From contig CAKOWQ010000003.1 in the NCBI GenBank assembly GCA_934122395.1, positions 186,299-250,298 of the forward strand: a stretch of DNA of 64,000 bases. The letters run 5' to 3'. The notes beneath the pieces are model-generated. The model did not search any database. It was not told the origin of the DNA and worked only from the letters and a program-made list of their open reading frames with translations. Position numbers and translations under genes: made by a program. Below, one piece after another: positions 1,231 through 9,569 of the stretch (its first letter is position 1; every line of letters starts with the position of its first letter). This stretch comes from an uncultured Bacilli bacterium. GTDB taxonomy: Bacteria; Bacillota_I; Bacilli_A; RF39; UBA660.

Positions 1231-2092
1231 TGGAAAATATGTAACTATAATGTTATGTTCACAATGTAATAATAATTGTAAACATTGCTATATAAGTTAT
1301 TCAGGAAGATTTGCTGATGAAGAATTATCAAGAATAATTCCAAATTTAAATGAAAAATATACAATTTTATTAAATGGTACAGAACCGATTATGTATCCTG
1401 AATATTATAAATATTTTAAAATGGTAAACGAACATAGAATAATAACAAACGGAATAACAATTCTTGAAAATCCAAATGTTTTGGATCAATTATCGGAAAA
1501 TGGAATTAATGAAGTTTGGCTTTCATACCATTTTGGTATTCAAAACGAAATATCAAGAATTAATGAAAATCAGTTAAATAATGTTATTCAGATTCTTAAA
1601 AAGAACAATTTTTTAGTAAAATTGATGTGTTCTTTATCAAAACATAATTATCAAAATGTTTCTAAATTCTGTGAAAGAGCATTAGAAATTGGAGCTGACA
1701 AAATAAAATTTACTAATTTTATTAGTCAAGGAAGTGCAAAAAGCAACTTTGATAACTCAGAATTTTTAAATCAAGAACAAATAAATTTTGTTTTGGAAGA
1801 AATAGAAAAAATGAGATCAATTATACCAAAGGAAGATTTGAATATACAAAGATGTGGAACATTTGGACCAAATATTCATAAAAACAATTTTCGATGTTTG
1901 GCTGGACAAGATATGATAGTTCTTACTCCAGATAGAAAACTATACAATTGTGTATTTAACATATCAAGTGATGATTGCATTGGATATATGGATAATGACT
2001 ATAATTTAATTATAAATTCAGAAGTTGCACCAATAAATCAATCATATTGTAAGGTACTAAAAAAACACAACGGAGTTGGAGGAATAAATTGA
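1217..2092 (+). CDS. Radical SAM protein with Cys-rich C-terminal (SPASM/twitch-like) region
   Basis: CNNNCKHC (CX3CX2C) near the N-terminus, GTEP (GGEP-like), C-terminal CGTFGP..FRCLAG..LYNC; SD GAGGAGG; overlaps the upstream gene by 14 nt. Confidence 0.8.
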   Translation: MEKYNGKYVTIMLCSQCNNNCKHCYISYSGRFADEELSRIIPNLNEKYTILLNGTEPIMYPEYYKYFKMVNEHRIITNGITILENPNVLDQLSENGINEVWLSYHFGIQNEISRINENQLNNVIQILKKNNFLVKLMCSLSKHNYQNVSKFCERALEIGADKIKFTNFISQGSAKSNFDNSEFLNQEQINFVLEEIEKMRSIIPKEDLNIQRCGTFGPNIHKNNFRCLAGQDMIVLTPDRKLYNCVFNISSDDCIGYMDNDYNLIINSEVAPINQSYCKVLKKHNGVGGIN

Positions 2093-3126
2093 AAATTTGT
2101 GGAAGAATTATAAATGTAAAACTAAAAACAAATGTATTGTTTTTATTGATTGAAAACAATAAAATCACACAAATAGTCATAAAAAATAATATTGAATATT
2201 TCTTAAATAATTTGAATGCTGGTGATATAGTTGAATGTCTCGTCACTAAAGATAGAAATAACAACGGAAAATATAAGCCAAAATATGATTCTTTTTTACT
2301 TAGAAGTCTAAAGATAATTAGTAAAAATAAAAAAAATTACAAATTAACATTAAATAAAACAAATATTATAAAATATAGTGATGTTAAATATGAAATAAGA
2401 AAATATTTACACAAATTAGGATATTTAGAAGTTACGTTGCCTATTTTAACTAATGGAGAAGTATCTTCAAAGTCAGAATCATTTTGTACTTTATATTCTA
2501 AGAAAAATATTAAATTATATTTGCGAAAAACTATGGACATATTTTTAAGAATGTATTCTTGTAGTGATTTTAATAAAATTTATTGTATAGGAAATTGCTA
2601 TAGAAATGAATATCTTACAAGTAAATATAAGCCAGAATTCGAAATGCTTTCCATCTTTAGCAATTATCTAAGTAAAAATAATGCAATAAAATTAGCTATA
2701 AAAATAATAAAAATTATAACTTCCAAGGATATTGAATGCAGTTTTATAGATGAAAAATCATATAATGAAATCACCCCGAGTGATAATACTTTTTATGTGA
2801 TAAATAATTATGCCAATTCTACAAATAGTTACTGTGATGTGCTTGAAAATGACAAAACAGATGAATTTAAAGTTAAATACAAAGGTGTTACCATTGTTCA
2901 TGGTGTAAGTGAAATATGCAATTATGATGAATATGTAAAAAAAATAGAGCTTCAAGGGAAAAAAGATGATTATGGTGAATTGCAAATTATTGAGAATTTA
3001 ATTGATTCTGGTGCTCCACAATGTTATAATCTGGGTATTAGTATAGTCAGACTTTTAAGTTTATATAATAATCTAAAAATTAAAGATTATGATATATTTT
3101 CATTTGATAGATTAGGAGAAATTTAA
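2089..3126 (+). CDS. Shortened class IIb aminoacyl-tRNA-synthetase paralog (LysRS/EpmA-like core with N-terminal OB fold), 345 aa
   Basis: OB-like KICGRIINVKLKTNVLFLLIENNKITQIVI..GDIVECLV; motif-1-like IRKYLHKLGYLEVTLPILT; motif 2 YCIGNCYRNE..YKPEFEMLS; motif-3-like GAPQCYNLGISIVRL; TTG start 7 nt after GGAGG, 4-nt overlap with the upstream gene. Confidence 0.65.
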   Translation: MKICGRIINVKLKTNVLFLLIENNKITQIVIKNNIEYFLNNLNAGDIVECLVTKDRNNNGKYKPKYDSFLLRSLKIISKNKKNYKLTLNKTNIIKYSDVKYEIRKYLHKLGYLEVTLPILTNGEVSSKSESFCTLYSKKNIKLYLRKTMDIFLRMYSCSDFNKIYCIGNCYRNEYLTSKYKPEFEMLSIFSNYLSKNNAIKLAIKIIKIITSKDIECSFIDEKSYNEITPSDNTFYVINNYANSTNSYCDVLENDKTDEFKVKYKGVTIVHGVSEICNYDEYVKKIELQGKKDDYGELQIIENLIDSGAPQCYNLGISIVRLLSLYNNLKIKDYDIFSFDRLGEI

Positions 3127-4203
3127 ATGAAAGAAGAAATTGATTTAAAAAAACTAACAAAAGAATATTTAAAATCTTATTATTCTATTAATTCTTATAT
3201 AGGATGTACAATAAATTGTGGATACTGTTTTTTAGCACCAATTAAAATAGTTCCAATGCGTCCAATAAAAGTCATAGATGAAAAAGAATTGATACGTAAT
3301 ATGATTAATGACAATTATTTTGAAAAAGGTAAAACTGTTATATCTTTGAATAATAGAACAGACCCATTTATATCACAAGAAGTTAAAAATAGTACTTTTA
3401 AATTATTAGATATTATGGAAGAATTGAATCTTAAAAATATTGTTACAATAACATCAAAAGGTCTATTAACTGAAGAAGATGCAAAAAAATTAGATAGTTA
3501 TAATAATATTAAAATCGTTATTATTGTAACTTATAATGGAATCCCTTTAAAAATACAACCTATTAATAAAATAAATCAAGAAAATACTATGAAAAATGTT
3601 TCAAAATGTAAAAATGTTTATTTGTTGCATCAATTTAGGCCTATTATTCCTGGGGTAAATGATGATGAAAAAACAATTAGAGAAGTAGTTGATTTTGCTA
3701 AAAAGTATTGTGATGCAACGATTTTCCAAGGAATTAGAGTTAACGATTATATAAAAAATAGACTTGAAGAAAGAGAATACTTGTATAGTGGTACAGTTGG
3801 TGATTCACATAAACAAAAAAGTGCGAGTACGGACGCGATATTTGAACAACTAAGACTTGAAGATAAAAATTATCAAATTTTCGATCATACATCCTGTGCT
3901 TTAAGTTATATTTTTAAAACGGCAGATTATAACTTACATTATTCTAAAAATAATTGCTCTAAATTGTGTAAAAATTATGAATTATGTCATAACTTAAATT
4001 ATAAATTACCTGTAGACTTAGAAGGTAAACTAAGAAAAATTGGTGTTAATTCCAATTGGGAGCTAAGGGATAAAACTTTAATAATTGATGGTTCATTAAA
4101 TGATGAACAAAAATCTTATATTAAACATATATTGAATCTTAATGTGAAAGCTAAAATTAGGGAAAATACATATTCAGAAAAAATAATGGAGGGAAAAAAG
4201 TGA
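3127..4203 (+). CDS. Radical SAM protein, COG1533/SplB-like (photolyase-like) family
   Basis: GCTINCGYC (CX3CX2C); NNRTDPFISQE, VTITSKG and FRPIIPGVNDDE match the family pattern; ATG directly abuts the upstream stop. Confidence 0.75.
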   Translation: MKEEIDLKKLTKEYLKSYYSINSYIGCTINCGYCFLAPIKIVPMRPIKVIDEKELIRNMINDNYFEKGKTVISLNNRTDPFISQEVKNSTFKLLDIMEELNLKNIVTITSKGLLTEEDAKKLDSYNNIKIVIIVTYNGIPLKIQPINKINQENTMKNVSKCKNVYLLHQFRPIIPGVNDDEKTIREVVDFAKKYCDATIFQGIRVNDYIKNRLEEREYLYSGTVGDSHKQKSASTDAIFEQLRLEDKNYQIFDHTSCALSYIFKTADYNLHYSKNNCSKLCKNYELCHNLNYKLPVDLEGKLRKIGVNSNWELRDKTLIIDGSLNDEQKSYIKHILNLNVKAKIRENTYSEKIMEGKK

Positions 4204-5474
4204 ATATAAAAATATTTTTTGATTTTCACGATGTATTTGTTGATGCAAAAAGCGCGTGGATTAAAGCATTAAAAGAAAAAACTAAATCAAATAAGGCAGA
4301 AATTGACTACAATAGAGGGTTATCAAAAAAAATAATATGCGAAAAATATAAATTAAATTATGAACAACTAGAAAAACTTTACAGAGTATATTTAAATCCA
4401 ATTAATGATAATATTGATTTTGCTGAAAAATTGAGTCAATCATATAAAATAAATATTTTATCTATGTCTAGAAAAGACAGATTACTTAAAGATATGCAAA
4501 AATTCAAACTTATTAATTTGTTTGATACGATAATCTCTAAAGAAGATATAATAGAATATAAAACAAAAGATGAATATTTAGTTTCTATTTCTTCTGATTA
4601 TGATTGGATTATATATTTTAATCATGAAAGTAATACTATTATTCAGAAAGATAATATTATTTATTTACCAGTAAATTTAAAAGGAGATTTATCTAAATTT
4701 AAAAATATTAGTTTTACTGAACATGCTAAAAACAAATTGCTATATAATGACTTATCTAAATATTATATGTATGCGATTGCTAATGATACTTCTTTGGAAA
4801 CAAACTTTTTATCAGAAATATATAAAAGATATAATTTGCCAACCGATGGAAAAATCCTTGATTGCTGTTGTGGTGTAGGACGACATGACTATTTACTTGC
4901 AAATGCTGGCTATCAGGTCACTGGAATCGATATTTCTAAAGAACAAATAACTAATGCAAAAAGAATTCATAATCATAAGAACATTGATTATCATGTTATG
5001 GATGTAAGGCATATTGATTTATTAGAAAAAAATTATGATATGTCAATTTGTATGTGGACAACTTACAATTATCTTTCCCAGGATAGTGATTTTGTAAGCT
5101 TTATCAAGTCAAATTATCAGCACCAACATAAAGGATCATTGATAGTATTAGATTCAAAAAACATTCCTAGATTAAATAATAGACGAGTTTATAAAAGAAA
5201 TAGTTCAACTGATAACGGAATAGAAATAGAACTAATTGTAAACAAATATATTATTAACAACATACAAAATTCACAATACCTATACTTTATAAAAGATAAA
5301 GACGATAAGAAATTTTATTTTGATGATGAATTCGTAAGATTTTATACTCTTGATGAAATTACAAAATTGGTAAATGAGTATTACGAAGTGGTAGATGTAT
5401 TTGGAGATTTTGATTTTAGTTCCTATGATAAAAAAATGAGTAATAGATTTATTGTGGTATTAAGGAGAAAGTAA
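4200..5474 (+). CDS. Two-domain protein: degenerate HAD-like N-terminus fused to a class I SAM-dependent methyltransferase
   Basis: MTase motif I ILDCCCGVGRH and VTGIDIS; N-terminal IFFDFHDVFVD resembles HAD motif I, but the second Asp position is His; GTG start after GGAGGG; 4-nt overlap. Confidence 0.7.
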   Translation: MNIKIFFDFHDVFVDAKSAWIKALKEKTKSNKAEIDYNRGLSKKIICEKYKLNYEQLEKLYRVYLNPINDNIDFAEKLSQSYKINILSMSRKDRLLKDMQKFKLINLFDTIISKEDIIEYKTKDEYLVSISSDYDWIIYFNHESNTIIQKDNIIYLPVNLKGDLSKFKNISFTEHAKNKLLYNDLSKYYMYAIANDTSLETNFLSEIYKRYNLPTDGKILDCCCGVGRHDYLLANAGYQVTGIDISKEQITNAKRIHNHKNIDYHVMDVRHIDLLEKNYDMSICMWTTYNYLSQDSDFVSFIKSNYQHQHKGSLIVLDSKNIPRLNNRRVYKRNSSTDNGIEIELIVNKYIINNIQNSQYLYFIKDKDDKKFYFDDEFVRFYTLDEITKLVNEYYEVVDVFGDFDFSSYDKKMSNRFIVVLRRK

Positions 5475-5983
5475 TGAATAATGAATTAAAAAAATTAAAT
5501 TCATTATTTGATGGTAGTGATGAATCTGCTATGAATATTGCATATGACATTGCACATAAATATTCTTCTTGCAGATTATGTGGAGTTGGTAAAGGTGTTG
5601 GTGCAGTTATAATTAAAGATAATAAAATAATTTGTTATGGATATAATGGTATAATTGATAATATTAAACCATGCACTAAAGATAGTTGTCTAAGAATATC
5701 TAGAAATATTGAACATGGCACAAGAAGAGATGAATGTTATGGAGATTGTGCAGAAAAACGTGCATTCATTAATGCTTACCAAAATAATATAGACATAAAA
5801 AACTCAAAAATATATATTACAAAATCTCCTTGTGTATCATGCTGTAAATTACTAATTAATTTAGGAATAAAAGAAGTCATATATAATGAAATATATAGTA
5901 ATTCAGATTTTTCTTTTGAACTTTTAAATTTAGCTAGAATTAAATATAAAAAATTAGAAAATTTTTATAGAGATGATCATTAA
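5474..5983 (+). CDS. dCMP/cytidine-deaminase-superfamily zinc enzyme (ComEB/dCMP-deaminase-like)
   Basis: CAEKRAF ... SPCVSCCKLLINLGIKEVIY (C/H-A-E ... PCxxC); extra Cys/His cluster KPCTKDSCLR..H..C upstream as in dCMP deaminases; SD AAGGAG; 1-nt overlap. Confidence 0.8.
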   Translation: MNNELKKLNSLFDGSDESAMNIAYDIAHKYSSCRLCGVGKGVGAVIIKDNKIICYGYNGIIDNIKPCTKDSCLRISRNIEHGTRRDECYGDCAEKRAFINAYQNNIDIKNSKIYITKSPCVSCCKLLINLGIKEVIYNEIYSNSDFSFELLNLARIKYKKLENFYRDDH

Positions 5984-6049: not shown

Positions 6050-6265
6050 ATATGTTAAATGTATTGATTGGGACACGGCTAATAACAATTATTTACAAAG
6101 CGAATTGTGGAAGGTGAAAGGCAATTAAATAACTTATTAGTTACTACCCATAAACAGGACTCGAAAGATGTTCCCGGTAATAGCCGTTATTAGTAATTAA
6201 GTTAAACCAAGGATGGTACCGTGTAATTCACTCCTGTTAGAATTTCTAGCAGGAGTTTTTATTTT
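6050..6265 (+). promoter_or_regulatory. T-box leader (tRNA-Thr-responsive transcription attenuator) of thrS
   Basis: T-box core AACCAAGGATGGTACCGTG (6206-6224); intrinsic terminator CTCCTGTTAG/CTAGCAGGAG plus T-run (6231-6265); candidate Thr specifier ACU/ACC at 6143-6148; sits upstream of thrS. Confidence 0.85.
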
Positions 6266-6279
6266 TAGGGGGAAAATAA

Positions 6280-6465
6280 ATGAACGAAACAAAGAAAGAG
6301 TTAAAAAGACAATTATTTGAATTAAGATTAGCTCAAGCATTTTATATATCAGAACATAAAGAAGATAGTGAAGAAATAGTAAAAGATATTAAGGTATTGA
6401 AAAAGAAATATGCAAGAGTATTGCTTAATGAAAAAATGGGAGGAAAAGAAAATGATAAACATTAA
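6280..6465 (+). CDS. Small helical Lys/Glu-rich protein (61 aa), unknown function, between the T-box terminator and thrS
   Basis: ATG preceded by GGGGGA SD; 3' end overlaps the thrS start by 14 nt; no recognisable domain. Confidence 0.45.
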   Translation: MNETKKELKRQLFELRLAQAFYISEHKEDSEEIVKDIKVLKKKYARVLLNEKMGGKENDKH

Positions 6466-8197
6466 AGAAGATGAAAAATTAAGTGTTATGAATCACTCAT
6501 GTGCTCATTTACTAGCACAAGCAGTAAAACATTTATATCCAAAAGCATTATTTTGGGTAGGACCTGTTATAGAAGATGGATTCTATTATGATATAGATTT
6601 AGGTGATGAATCTATTAATGATGAAGATTTAGCAAGAATTGAAAAAGAAATGAAGAAAATTGCTAAAGATGGAAAGAGAATTGTAAGAGAAGAAATAAGT
6701 AAAGAAGAAGCTTTAGAAAGATTTAAAAATGATCCATATAAAATAGATTTAATTTCTAGGATGGATGAAAATGATACAGTTATTTCTTGCTATACTCAGG
6801 GAGATTTTACTGACCTTTGTAGAGGACCACATCTTGAAAGTGTTAAAGAATTAAAGTATTTTAAATTACTCAAAGTAAGTGGTGCTTATTGGAAAGGTGA
6901 TTCTAATAACAAAATGCTTCAAAGAATTTATGGCATTTGTTTTGATAATGAAAATTCTTTAAGTGAATATTTGGCTTTTTTAGAAGAAGCTAAGAAAAGG
7001 GATCATAAAAAACTAGGTAAGGAATTAGATTTATTTATGATGAGTGAATATGGTCCAGGATTTCCTTTCTTCTTAAATAATGGAATGATTTTAAGAAATC
7101 AATTAGAAAATTTTTGGTATGAAGAACATACTAAAGAAGGGTATGAATTTGTTAAAACTCCAATTATGTTAAATAAAGAACTTTGGGAATTATCTGGACA
7201 CTGGTTTAATTATAGAGAAAATATGTATACAAGTGAAATTGATGATAAAGTATTTGCAATTAAACCTATGAACTGTCCTGGTGGAATGCTTGTATATAAA
7301 AATTCTCTTCATTCTTATAAAGATTTACCATTAAGAATCGGAGAATTAGGTCAAGTACATAGACATGAAGCAAGCGGAGCATTAAACGGTCTATTTAGAG
7401 TTAGAACATTTACGCAAGATGATGCTCATATATTTATGAGAGAAGATCAAATAGAAGAAGAAGTTATAAGATTAATTAACTTTATAGATAGAATGTATTC
7501 TATATTTGGATTAACTTATGATATTGAATTATCGACTAGACCAGAAGAAAAATATATTGGAAGTATTGAAATTTGGAATAAATCTGAAAAAGCTTTAGAA
7601 GAAGCATGTCATAGAGCAGGACATGATTGTAAAATAAATCCTGGTGATGGTGCTTTCTATGGACCTAAATTAGACTTTCATATTAAAGATTCTTTGGGTA
7701 GAGTATGGCAATGTGGAACAATTCAACTTGATATGAATTTACCAGAAAGATTTGATTTAACATATATTAGTTCTGATGGAAGTAAGAAAAGACCAGTTAT
7801 GTTACATCGCGTAATATATGGCTCAATTGAAAGATTTATTGGTATTTTAATTGAACATTATGCTGGAGCATTTCCACTTTGGCTTAGTCCAGTACAAGTA
7901 AATATTATTCCAGTTAATAATGAACTACATATGAATTATTGTAATGAAATTAAGAATTTACTTGAAGAAAATAATATTAGGGTTAAAGTTGATGCTAGAG
8001 ATGAAAAATTAGGATATAAAATGCGTGAAAGTCAAATCAAAAAAATACCTATAACTTTAATTATTGGAGATAATGAAGTTAATAAAAAACAAATTAGTTA
8101 TCGTAAATATGGAAATCAAGAAACTTATACTTGTGAAATTGATGAATTTATTAGTGAAATTAGTAAATGCTTAAAAGATAAAAAATATAATATTTAA
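6452..8197 (+). CDS. thrS: Threonyl-tRNA synthetase (no N-terminal TGS domain)
   Basis: HSCAHLLAQAV editing-domain motif at the N-terminus, class II core (FRVRTFTQDDAHIF, GAFYGPKLDF), anticodon domain; start moved to ATG 6452 (GGAGG 8 nt upstream) from the ORF-track 6410. Confidence 0.95.
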   Translation: MINIKEDEKLSVMNHSCAHLLAQAVKHLYPKALFWVGPVIEDGFYYDIDLGDESINDEDLARIEKEMKKIAKDGKRIVREEISKEEALERFKNDPYKIDLISRMDENDTVISCYTQGDFTDLCRGPHLESVKELKYFKLLKVSGAYWKGDSNNKMLQRIYGICFDNENSLSEYLAFLEEAKKRDHKKLGKELDLFMMSEYGPGFPFFLNNGMILRNQLENFWYEEHTKEGYEFVKTPIMLNKELWELSGHWFNYRENMYTSEIDDKVFAIKPMNCPGGMLVYKNSLHSYKDLPLRIGELGQVHRHEASGALNGLFRVRTFTQDDAHIFMREDQIEEEVIRLINFIDRMYSIFGLTYDIELSTRPEEKYIGSIEIWNKSEKALEEACHRAGHDCKINPGDGAFYGPKLDFHIKDSLGRVWQCGTIQLDMNLPERFDLTYISSDGSKKRPVMLHRVIYGSIERFIGILIEHYAGAFPLWLSPVQVNIIPVNNELHMNYCNEIKNLLEENNIRVKVDARDEKLGYKMRESQIKKIPITLIIGDNEVNKKQISYRKYGNQETYTCEIDEFISEISKCLKDKKYNI

Positions 8198-8293: not shown

Positions 8294-8890
8294 ATGAAAA
8301 AAGATATTAAACATTATAAACAATCTGGAAACGCTTGTGCTATAGCATGTTTGTTAATGATTTTGGAGTATTATGATGTGATTACAAAAGCTAATTATGT
8401 TTATGAGAAAAAGTACTATAATTCATATTCTTCTCAATATTTATTAGGAGTTCCGTTATCAGCAGTATTTTGGCATTTAATAAAGAATAATATAAATGCT
8501 GAAATGTTTCATTCAGAAAAAAACTTGTTTTCTAATAATAAACAAATAATTGACAATAATATTTTTAATCTTGCAATTATTGAATATAAAGAGTATCTGG
8601 AATATGCAATTCTAAAAGGCGCCAAAGTATACAATGGTGTAAATATAAATATCGATTTAATACAAGAAAAGGTCAAAGACAATTTCATTATTCTTGCTGG
8701 GGTAATCAATCAGAATTTTCATACTATTTTAATTACTTCTTTTAAAAATGATTACTTTATAGTTAATAATCCTGCAGTTAATGTATCTACAAATATAGAA
8801 GGTGAAAAAGTTAATGAGTTTATGAATACTGATATTGGAAAATGGTTTATCGCAATACCAAAAGGAGAAGTCTATGAAAAAGAAATATGA
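8294..8890 (+). CDS. Stand-alone C39-like (papain-fold) cysteine peptidase domain protein
   Basis: N-terminal Q-x4-C motif YKQSGNACAIACLLMILEYY; later FHTILITSF and VNNP could supply the His and Asn/Asp. Confidence 0.55.
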   Translation: MKKDIKHYKQSGNACAIACLLMILEYYDVITKANYVYEKKYYNSYSSQYLLGVPLSAVFWHLIKNNINAEMFHSEKNLFSNNKQIIDNNIFNLAIIEYKEYLEYAILKGAKVYNGVNINIDLIQEKVKDNFIILAGVINQNFHTILITSFKNDYFIVNNPAVNVSTNIEGEKVNEFMNTDIGKWFIAIPKGEVYEKEI

Positions 8891-9569
8891 AGATGATAAT
8901 TATGTTATATATTATCCTGATGCTTTAGAGGAGTTTGTAAATGATATGATAATTTGTACTAAGGCACAGATAAATAATATATATACTTTCTTTAATGTAA
9001 AAAATCTTAGAAAAATTCAAGTTAATTTATTTGATAATATAGATGAATTTAGAAAATTTGTTATTGATTTGCGTAGTGGTGATGAAAAATCATTACCTCA
9101 GTATGCAAAGGGAACTTTTGATGATGGGATGATTAATGCTTATATTGAACCTAACTTCATTAAAACTTCTAGTCTTTATGAAAAAAGAAAACGCATGATG
9201 CTACATGAAACTGTTCATTTGATATATAATGAAATTCTTTTAATGAATAATTTTGATAATAGAGTAGTATGGCTTGATGAAGGCCTTGCTCAAAACTTAT
9301 CTTTAGAAGAAGAGAAAAATGATAAAAAAATTAAGCAAAGTATTATTTCTAACAATATAGCAATTGATATAAATGATTTGAGTCATGGGGATATTTTTAT
9401 TACTAGTGAATATAACGGTTATGATTTATCATATTTTGCAGTTAGATATTTATTAGATACTTTGAATAGTAAACAAATAATAGAAATTATAAAAGATAAA
9501 GATAAGGCAATTAAACTTGGTAAGACAATAATTATAGACGCAATTAATTTTTATAAAAGGAGAGTATAA
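8874..9569 (+). CDS. Putative zinc metallopeptidase (peptidase MA-like, HExxH)
   Basis: MLHETVHLIY (HExxH) followed by WLDEGLAQ; start set at ATG 8874 (AGGAGAAG SD); overlaps the upstream gene by 17 nt. Confidence 0.55.
   Translation: MKKKYEDDNYVIYYPDALEEFVNDMIICTKAQINNIYTFFNVKNLRKIQVNLFDNIDEFRKFVIDLRSGDEKSLPQYAKGTFDDGMINAYIEPNFIKTSSLYEKRKRMMLHETVHLIYNEILLMNNFDNRVVWLDEGLAQNLSLEEEKNDKKIKQSIISNNIAIDINDLSHGDIFITSEYNGYDLSYFAVRYLLDTLNSKQIIEIIKDKDKAIKLGKTIIIDAINFYKRRV

Follow-up and report, generated by a model that had tools for sequence, protein, structure and literature searches.

A 64,000-nucleotide stretch of DNA from an uncultured Bacilli bacterium (NCBI GenBank assembly GCA_934122395.1, contig CAKOWQ010000003.1, positions 186,299 to 250,298 of the forward strand; hereafter, the window) carries, at positions 2089 to 3126, a gene for a 345-residue class IIb paralog of lysyl-tRNA synthetase (LysRS), in which an OB domain is joined to a compact catalytic core. 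The protein is a LysRS descendant yet a member of neither the LysRS nor the EpmA family. We conclude that it represents a rare, conserved, mobile, and undescribed family of repurposed aminoacyl-tRNA synthetase (aaRS) paralogs that resides in a small, biosynthetic-type gene cassette, and it is the first LysRS-derived paralog seen in this analysis that has kept the anticodon-binding OB domain while discarding the lysine pocket. The interpretation we favor, with a probability of about 0.35, is that the protein actively ligates an amino acid to make a metabolite of the aminoacyl-nucleoside or aminoacyl-nucleotide type, possibly assisted by tRNA, as with AcmF and AbmF.

The gene, which like all of the window's genes described below lies on the forward strand, starts with a TTG codon, and its homologues begin at the same residue. 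Its start overlaps by 4 nt the stop of the upstream gene, which encodes a 291-residue radical S-adenosylmethionine (SAM) protein, and the next gene, encoding a 358-residue radical SAM protein, begins 1 nt after its end. Antisense open reading frames (ORFs) overlie it, as is expected in DNA of 23% GC. Comparisons with three orthologues gave dN/dS ratios of 0.09 to 0.17; therefore, the gene is under purifying selection and functional, not a chance ORF.

Profile searches place the protein among class II synthetases and closest to LysRS. It matches Pfam PF00152 (tRNA-synt_2, the class II D/K/N synthetases) with an E value of 2.6e-26, and its best NCBIfam model is LysRS (PRK00484; E = 6e-21), with residues 2 to 213 aligned to model positions 55 to 289 of 488, the OB/anticodon-binding domain included. 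The EpmA, AspRS, and AsnRS models rank after LysRS, and all scores fall far under the curated cutoffs: 74.6 bits for LysRS model NF001756 (cutoff, 468) and 68.2 for TIGR00499 (427.6), against 63.4 bits for EpmA model NF006828 (264) and 37.5 for TIGR00462 (286.9). When a profile of 25 family members was compared with known structures, LysRS again came first (1e-26), followed by EpmA (∼2e-11) and AspRS (∼6e-10). In an AlphaFold2 model calculated on the family alignment (mean pLDDT, 88.9; pTM, 0.83), a five-strand OB barrel with an inserted helix (residues 2 to 78) is joined by a linker helix to a compact class II core built on an antiparallel sheet. When this model was compared with the PDB by Foldseek, the 50 best matches were all LysRS chains, which cover the whole query with a TM score of ∼0.8 and an E value of ∼1e-24.

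An earlier note on this DNA had described a miniaturized LysRS/EpmA-type class II paralog with an anticodon-binding-type OB fold. The ORF and every peptide string quoted from it are present as described, and the profiles, the predicted fold, and the Foldseek matches bear the description out, with LysRS the closest of the four families (LysRS, AspRS, AsnRS, and EpmA) to which the protein was aligned. The note had also set this architecture apart from EpmA and AsnA as truncated paralogs that lack the OB domain; that distinction holds, as the OB domain is present here and the EpmA alignment begins only at residue ∼86.

Conservation was read from alignments of 25 and 18 family members. In the OB-fold domain (residues 1 to 78; positions 2089 to 2322), K11, F18, Q28, D46, D55, and N58 are invariant or nearly so, and the loop D55-x-x-N58 is a fixed feature of the family. 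Profile-to-LysRS alignments place K11, F18, and Q28 on an Arg, a Phe, and a Gln of LysRS at the sites of U35/U36 contact; in human LysRS, R136, F144, and Q155 stack on and bond anticodon bases U35 and U36 (PMC11643047). The conservation of K11, F18, and Q28 therefore indicates that the nucleic-acid-binding face of the OB domain has been preserved. The catalytic core contains motif 1 (LGYLEVTLPIL; 2416 to 2448), with an invariant P118; motif 2 and its loop (CYRNE...KPEFEMLS; 2596 to 2652), in which R172, N173, and F184 are invariant and E174 is nearly so; and motif 3 (GISIVRL; 3034 to 3054), with invariant G316 and R321. The arginines of motifs 2 and 3 (R172 and R321) are thus conserved on alignment. 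F184, retained across the family, is the adenine-stacking Phe of motif 2, and the motif 2 loop has the same length as that of LysRS. Judged from these residues, the protein is predicted to retain what ATP binding requires.

For the amino-acid pocket and the Mg ligands, we used the numbering of the LysU structures, mapped via the alignments. LysU E240 corresponds to D150 in the family, the lysine-binding E278 to S188, Y280 to F190, N424 to H271, and F426 to V273, while E428 is kept as E275. The LysU GGAxARPF loop has given way to a Ser-rich E124-x-S126-S127-x-x-x-S131-F132, the Mg ligand E421 to an invariant Thr (T268), and R412-F-E414 to E259-F-K261, such that K261 occupies the E414 position and a Glu stands two residues earlier. 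Hence, the amino-acid pocket, unlike the motif arginines, did not prove conserved: four of the six LysRS lysine-pocket residues are replaced, and the replacements are then invariant in the family. Because the pocket has been rebuilt and then frozen, activation of lysine by this protein is very unlikely, as far as sequence alignments can predict. These replacements, together with scores far below both cutoffs, are the grounds on which we assign the protein to neither LysRS nor EpmA.

The family is rare. A word-indexed search of 5.8 billion proteins returned 34 clusters of ∼345 residues at 42 to 97% identity, nearly all of them unnamed metagenome proteins, after which ordinary LysRS follows at ≤26% identity. 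In an exhaustive profile search of 1.84 billion representatives, 19 proteins reached E ≤ 1e-30, and these are separated by a score gap from LysRS, which follows at ≤120 bits. GTDB, sampled as one genome per species (185,579 species), holds only two intact copies and one remnant. Our searches of mobile elements found no family member: matches among INPHARED phage proteins are ordinary LysRS fragments, those among PLSDB plasmids are lysS genes only, and IMG/VR contains no member of either the LysRS-like family or that of the 358-residue radical SAM protein. Metagenomes do contain other compact LysRS-like proteins with an OB domain (360 to 403 residues, one of them above the LysRS cutoff); small size and an OB domain are therefore not unique in themselves, and what sets the family apart is the remodeled pocket and the gene context. 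We found no account of the family in our literature searches.

In the window, that context is a tightly packed run of genes. From relA (18 to 680) to the end of a deaminase-like gene at 5983, the window's genes overlap or are separated by gaps of no more than ∼10 nt, and no terminator-like site was found between them, the first lying at 6230. The order is relA, DUF402, the 291-residue radical SAM gene, the LysRS-like gene, the 358-residue radical SAM gene, a 424-residue HAD-like/methyltransferase gene, and a 169-residue dCMP-deaminase-like gene. In a tblastn survey of related loci, cited here by number, a triad of LysRS-like, 358-residue radical SAM, and HAD-like genes was found in every locus, with identities that range between 31 and 97%. 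The accessory components are DUF402, the 291-residue radical SAM protein, the deaminase, and the methyltransferase domain. A 444-residue variant of the LysRS-like protein with a C-terminal extension (L018, L019, and L026) occurs in the order radical SAM, HAD/methyltransferase, LysRS-like.

The 358-residue radical SAM protein (3127 to 4203) has a CxxxCxxC motif (C27/C31/C34) and four further conserved cysteines, and its fold is nearest to those of PFL-activating enzyme and spore photoproduct lyase, with lysine 2,3-aminomutase ranking 12th. It adjoins the LysRS-like gene in every locus, with L013 holding a fused remnant and L025 having no flank. In the following gene (4200 to 5474; Pfam and NCBIfam), the HAD-like part (residues 1 to 180) is always present, while the class I SAM methyltransferase domain is missing in L005 and L008; this domain is closest to small-molecule N-methyltransferases, namely, dTDP-aminosugar N,N-dimethyltransferases and phosphoethanolamine methyltransferases. 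The dCMP-deaminase-family protein (5474 to 5983; Pfam and NCBIfam) is nearest to dCMP deaminases (2hvv; 2.7e-16) and is a frequent member of the cassette, decayed or absent in several loci. Upstream, the DUF402 protein (691 to 1230; Pfam and NCBIfam) belongs to the FomD/nucleoside di- and triphosphatase family, which includes FomD, hydrolase of a cytidylyl conjugate; it recurs as a cassette accessory in three different arrangements and is fused to a GNAT acetyltransferase in L005. The 291-residue radical SAM protein (1217 to 2092), weakly similar to SPASM/twitch enzymes and to viperin, is confined to the window's lineage. The relA/spoT-type gene is represented by its 3′ end, the TGS region; RelA_SpoT/TGS Pfam domains were identified on the L001 orthologue, and the stop lies 10 nt before the next gene. 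With ARAGORN, neither the cassette nor its immediate surroundings yielded a tRNA gene, in the window or in ∼25 loci, and no cassette locus contains an efp gene. The cassette proteins match no defence system in PADLOC-DB v2; the single-domain similarities are weak (pVip, 3.8e-7; dCTPase, 1.2e-16; mad2, 8.9e-12), and none was found for the LysRS-like protein or the 358-residue radical SAM protein.

The cassette is mobile, sporadic, and dispensable within a species. L011 and L029 to L031 come from one species, their flanking genes being 92 to 100% identical and their threonyl-tRNA synthetases (ThrRS) 97% identical. In L011, genes for DUF402, the LysRS-like protein, the radical SAM protein, and the HAD/methyltransferase, along with deaminase fragments, are inserted directly after thrS; at the same site in L029 to L031 there is just a short ORF and no cassette. 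Since these conspecific contigs lack the cassette, the LysRS-like gene cannot be the essential LysRS of the cell, which answers, indirectly, the earlier note's refuting condition of a genome with no other gene of this type. Between relA and thrS is where the cassette sits in the window's lineage, whereas in L023 it forms a 49% GC stretch within a 60 to 64% GC contig, beside a resolvase. Recombinase genes adjoin it in L005, L008, and L018, and in L005 and L018 it has further neighbors in DnaB-like, HTH_36 (L005), or putative replication (L018) genes. We also observed decay. An Oscillospiraceae metagenome-assembled genome (MAG; L013, 7178 to 14953) retains a 241-residue fusion of LysRS-like residues 143 to 225 with radical SAM residues 208 to 355, which lies with intact HAD/methyltransferase and deaminase genes between asnS-asnA and a thrS that encodes ThrRS without a TGS domain. 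Cassette genes are split into several frames in L007 (3795 to 8816, thrS too) and L009 (9050 to 11374), through either pseudogenization or assembly and sequencing errors.

Downstream of the cassette lies thrS (6452 to 8197), which encodes a 581-residue ThrRS without the TGS domain and is preceded by a T-box leader and terminator hairpin (6055 to 6256; cmscan). The leader (6055 to 6238) scores 62.9 bits (E = 2.6e-13), under the Rfam gathering score of 93; a scan of the whole window at the gathering threshold was empty, and the T-box emerged with an E-value threshold only. Its specifier is apparently ACU (Thr), as read by eye from the cmscan alignment, and the terminator (6230 to 6256) is a 12-bp hairpin followed by a U-run. 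The 581-residue form has thousands of near relatives, on contigs of up to 1.2 Mb, and thrS diverges at the same pace as relA and is native in L011 and L029. On the strength of its own T-box, the abundance of the 581-residue form, its relA-like divergence, and its native position in L011 and L029, we conclude that thrS here is the lineage's housekeeping copy; the idea that it is a cassette-borne resistant copy in the window's lineage was rejected on the last three of these grounds. Even so, thrS adjoins the cassette in five of eight lineages, downstream in the window, L001 to L007, and L013 and upstream in L009 to L011. That the cassette recurs on either side of thrS, in different settings, goes beyond conserved synteny; it could reflect functional coupling, be it the supply of Thr-AMP or Thr-tRNA or a coselected target, or else a preferred insertion zone.

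Some of the TGS-less ThrRS relatives come from MAGs named Tenericutes, Mycoplasmatota, or Firmicutes; the window itself encodes rsmH and a PBP2x/FtsI-type transpeptidase, and the organism therefore forms a cell wall. A 61-residue ORF (6280 to 6465) with a strong GGGGG ribosome-binding site follows the T-box terminator and overlaps the start of thrS (6452) in another frame; even the close strain L021, whose LysRS-like gene is 96% identical, does not conserve this ORF, which is probably spurious or strain specific. Directly after thrS (8294 to 9569) come overlapping genes for a stand-alone C39-like peptidase (198 residues) and an MA-superfamily metallopeptidase-like protein (244 residues), a pair that is not conserved next to thrS in L001.

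In three contigs from two lineages (L018/L019, L026, and L008), an S66 peptidase overlaps or follows the cassette in place of thrS. It belongs to the MccF clade, with matches to the Bacillus anthracis MccF-like protein at 1.9e-82, to MccF at 1e-40 to 5e-30, and to LdcA at 1e-12 to 1e-19. Homologous GNATs occur in L018 and, as the DUF402 fusion, in L005 (33% identity; E = 1e-19). NUDIX and HD proteins lie near the cassette in some loci, with NUDIX proteins in L005 and L018; in the cassette-bearing relative L001, three consecutive NUDIX genes (2730 to 4226) lie upstream of relA. MccF peptidases, GNATs (MccE2), and extra aaRS genes are known means of self-protection against aminoacyl-nucleotide inhibitors of aaRSs (PMC8323819).

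Relatives of the radical SAM protein are also found without the LysRS-like gene. In L016 (7429 to 10042), a homologue 53% identical to the window's is found together with a thymidylate-kinase-like gene and a 320-residue methyltransferase gene, and this trio adjoins HSP70-like and HerA-like genes. Distant relatives (26 to 27% identity) on Streptomyces, Gluconobacter, Sinorhizobium, and Nostoc plasmids form a module with a 3′-5′ exonuclease, an AAA/ATP-binding protein of ∼195 residues, and an aldo/keto reductase or HD protein (L032, 4812 to 10063; L033, 6950 to 8758; L034, 5917 to 9162; L035, 5920 to 9705). In Streptomyces, this module comes after thymidylate-synthase-like and NDK-like genes; on the other plasmids its surroundings include Shedu, HEPN/Toprim, toxin-antitoxin, and HNH genes. 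We take the module for a candidate nucleotide-modifying defence system, as yet undescribed. A 25% identical homologue in L027 (760 to 10382) belongs to a different cluster, with a methyltransferase/His-phosphatase fusion, a HAD hydrolase, a second radical SAM protein, and another methyltransferase, and a ThiF-family (MccB-like) gene lies ∼1 kb farther on. An apparent KsgA::radical SAM fusion (P0116) was discarded as a probable chimera, as it comes from a 2.7-kb contig at 1.7x coverage. The theme shared by the cassette partners and these relatives is pyrimidine mononucleotide chemistry on mobile accessory DNA.

In the pathway that we infer, the LysRS-like protein would be the ATP-dependent, adenylate-forming ligase that attaches an amino acid within a mobile cassette. 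Its partners would modify a pyrimidine nucleotide or nucleoside through deamination, radical SAM chemistry, N-methylation, and phosphorylation or dephosphorylation, and joining of the tailored nucleotide to the amino acid would yield an aminoacyl-nucleoside or aminoacyl-nucleotide metabolite. Such a product could mimic an aminoacyl-adenylate or the 3′ end of aminoacyl-tRNA and act as an inhibitor inside or outside the cell, as an antibiotic or antiviral effector. The retained OB domain might hold a tRNA, which could donate the aminoacyl group as it does for AcmF and SbzA, or it might bind a different nucleic acid, and thrS, the MccF-like peptidase, and the GNATs may serve supply or self-protection. 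The constant order of the LysRS-like, radical SAM, and HAD(-methyltransferase) genes across 31 to 97% identity, reordered in the 444-residue variants, supports a common pathway of this kind. The retained fold and ATP-binding residues, the conserved rebuilding of the pocket, the likeness of the partners to small-molecule and mononucleotide enzymes, the MccF-clade and GNAT neighbors, and the sporadic mobility of the cassette point the same way. There are also precedents. AcmF, a truncated AlaRS-like enzyme that keeps its aminoacylation and tRNA-recognition domains, aminoacylates a nucleoside sulfamate with Ala-tRNA from the cluster's AlaRS, AcmD, which also acts as a resistant copy, and SbzA is a further aaRS-like case (PMC12945691); AbmF/AbmK likewise pairs a truncated aaRS-like enzyme with a full aaRS (PMC9032320). 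A tRNA-dependent mechanism of the AcmF kind would account for the retention of the OB domain and its anticodon-contact residues.

Several observations weigh against this reading. The cassette lacks an exporter, a precursor-peptide gene, and recognizable sugar or nucleoside scaffold genes. The neighboring aaRS is ThrRS, not LysRS, whereas AcmF/AcmD and AbmF/AbmK are pairs of the same type; moreover, thrS is a T-box-regulated housekeeping gene and not, on the face of it, an additional resistant copy. One lineage (L023/L024) has neither thrS nor an MccF-like gene, and S66, GNAT, and NUDIX genes are common in accessory islands. Part of the adjacency to thrS could reflect a preferred insertion zone, since other variable genes flank thrS in L011. 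The ATP site that is kept here has been lost in AcmF, and with E421 changed to Thr and E414 swapped, adenylation chemistry is plausible but not assured. We regard as doubtful the more specific proposal that this miniature LysRS-derived enzyme uses a tRNA held by its OB domain to build an aminoacylated, radical-SAM-modified pyrimidine nucleotide that targets translation, for example as a ThrRS-directed mimic of an aminoacyl-adenylate or as a mimic of the aminoacyl-tRNA 3′ end, with MccF, GNAT, and thrS as self-protection.

The main rival is a tRNA-directed role, which we consider unlikely though deserving of serious attention. Here, the OB domain would bind a U35-containing tRNA (Lys, Asn, or Asp type), and the enzyme would charge it with a nonlysine or noncanonical amino acid or target its partner enzymes to it. 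The retention of K11, F18, and Q28 on the U35/U36 contacts, and of the D55..N58 loop, fits such a role, as do a motif 2 loop of LysRS length and the translation genes (relA, thrS, dtd, and asnS/asnA) that often adjoin the cassette. Aminoacyl-tRNA synthetase-type proteins that guide or perform tRNA modification are known in METTL6-SerRS and GluQRS, and the Pyl cassette pairs a class II aaRS with a radical SAM enzyme. However, tRNA genes are missing from the cassette and its immediate surroundings in all of the ∼25 loci, the closest resemblances of the deaminase and methyltransferase are to mononucleotide or small-molecule enzymes rather than to the TadA or Trm families, and the radical SAM homologues keep company with nucleotide kinases and thymidylate-synthase-like genes. 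Dispensability and horizontal mobility also argue against it. Finally, the anticodon site and the active site of class IIb enzymes lie far apart in established structures, so the OB domain cannot put an anticodon base into the catalytic pocket. A nucleotide or DNA hypermodification pathway, in which an amino acid is ligated onto a modified pyrimidine base so that the element evades restriction or the host makes a chain-terminating or replication-blocking nucleotide, seems to us rather improbable. Some phages carry amino-acid-decorated thymidines. Consistent with such a pathway are the distant modules of radical SAM protein, exonuclease, and small ATPase in defence islands with Shedu, HEPN/Toprim, and toxin-antitoxin genes, the position of the Streptomyces module after thymidylate-synthase-like and NDK-like genes, the dCMP-deaminase-like gene within the cassette, the DnaB/DnaD-like replication genes and recombinases beside it in L005 and L018, and the weak PADLOC similarities to pVip, dCTPase, and mad2. 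On the other hand, IMG/VR and INPHARED hold no LysRS-like or radical SAM family member, no known defence model is matched as a system, the window's lineage carries the cassette on a chromosome with no mobility genes, and the thrS and MccF-like neighbors would be left unexplained.

The three remaining explanations treat the protein as a LysRS or EpmA relative of a more familiar kind. The earlier note had suggested that the gene may stem from a duplicated class IIb synthetase recruited to a relA-dtd-...-hisS-aspS operon or, alternatively, encode a self-resistance decoy against an aaRS-targeting product of the cluster. An in-place duplicate in an operon of the relA-...-hisS-aspS type, or a catalytically idle decoy, is very improbable in our estimate, even though relA lies immediately upstream and extra aaRS copies are known as resistance devices (PMC8323819). 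In the window, neither hisS nor aspS follows relA, and the protein derives from LysRS, not AspRS; the occurrence of the mobile cassette in unrelated genomic contexts and as an insertion polymorphism rules out a local operon duplication. Were the protein a decoy for a LysRS inhibitor, one would expect an intact lysine pocket, yet four of the six pocket residues have changed and then become invariant; the active-site residues have been remodeled in concert, and the dispensable gene always occurs with the radical SAM and HAD/methyltransferase genes. What survives of the suggestion is a cluster that makes an aaRS-directed product, which gains some support from the MccF-type peptidase, GNAT, and thrS neighbors, while the decoy role does not. 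An EpmA-like protein ligase, aminoacylating a lysine of EF-P or another tRNA-shaped protein with a substrate supplied by the radical SAM protein in the manner of EpmB, is a still slimmer prospect. A LysRS paralog does stand beside a radical SAM enzyme, and EpmA models match at E = 2e-17; moreover, no ligase is known for the EF-P modification of Firmicutes. Yet the OB domain absent from EpmA is present here, the score is 63 bits against an EpmA cutoff of 264, the radical SAM partner has no KamA/EpmB family match, and the cassette is sporadic and mobile with no efp gene near it. Least probable of all is a genuine minimal lysyl-tRNA synthetase. The OB domain, motifs 1 to 3, and the anticodon-contact residues are kept, and compact LysRS enzymes of ∼400 residues exist in metagenomes, but 74.6 bits against a cutoff of 468, the replacement of residues that bind the lysine side chain, and the absence of the gene from conspecific genomes speak against it.

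Repurposed aaRS paralogs, among them EpmA, AsnA, HisZ, GluQRS, AcmF, and AbmF, have repeatedly revealed new biochemistry. If the more specific, tRNA-assisted proposal is correct for this cassette of uncultured Bacillota from human and animal guts, a class IIb synthetase paralog would for the first time stand at the center of aaRS-inhibitor-type or antiviral nucleotide chemistry. If the cassette makes an aminoacyl-nucleotide-type compound, uncultured members of the human gut microbiota would become a place to look for natural products directed at translation, or for antiviral nucleotides, and the protein would offer a compact, 345-residue class II scaffold of engineering interest. If tRNA is the target instead, the cassette would be a mobile tRNA-recoding or tRNA-modification module.

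Comparison with known systems shows where the family departs from each of them. Like LysS and LysU, the protein has an N-terminal OB domain followed by a class II core, with motifs 1 to 3, the ATP-contacting Arg and Phe, and the U35/U36-contact residues; it is, however, ∼150 residues shorter, has neither the N-terminal helix nor most of the motif 2-3 insertion, and differs at four of six lysine-pocket residues and one Mg-ligand position. LysS is essential and universal, whereas the LysRS-like gene is mobile and dispensable within a species. EpmA (PoxA/GenX), the EF-P beta-lysine ligase, is likewise a shortened LysRS paralog beside a radical SAM enzyme, but it has no OB domain, aligning only from residue ∼86 of the LysRS-like protein; the radical SAM enzyme beside it, in turn, falls outside the aminomutase type, and the cassette has no link to efp. 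The pylTSBCD genes resemble the cassette as a mobile unit that joins a class II aaRS-type enzyme to a radical SAM protein, yet the cassette has no tRNA gene in or beside it, and its other partners are nucleotide-type enzymes.

Microcin C clusters share with these loci an MccF-clade peptidase, RimL/GNAT-type acetyltransferases, and SAM-dependent tailoring enzymes beside an adenylate-forming enzyme (putative here). Unlike them, the cassette has no MccA peptide gene, ThiF-type MccB, or MccC exporter, and its adenylating enzyme would be a class II aaRS-type protein. In the ascamycin and albomycin pathways, AcmF and AbmF are, like SbzA, truncated or diverged aaRS paralogs in which the catalytic fold and a part for tRNA recognition persist, as they do here. 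Their genes lie beside those for nucleoside-tailoring enzymes (radical SAM and methyltransferase; putative tailoring enzymes in the cassette), a complete aaRS, and self-protection (candidates here). These enzymes derive from AlaRS, SerRS, or IleRS and stand beside the matching aaRS, while here a LysRS-type protein stands beside a housekeeping ThrRS; their hosts are Streptomyces, and those of the LysRS-like cassette are uncultured gut Bacillota.

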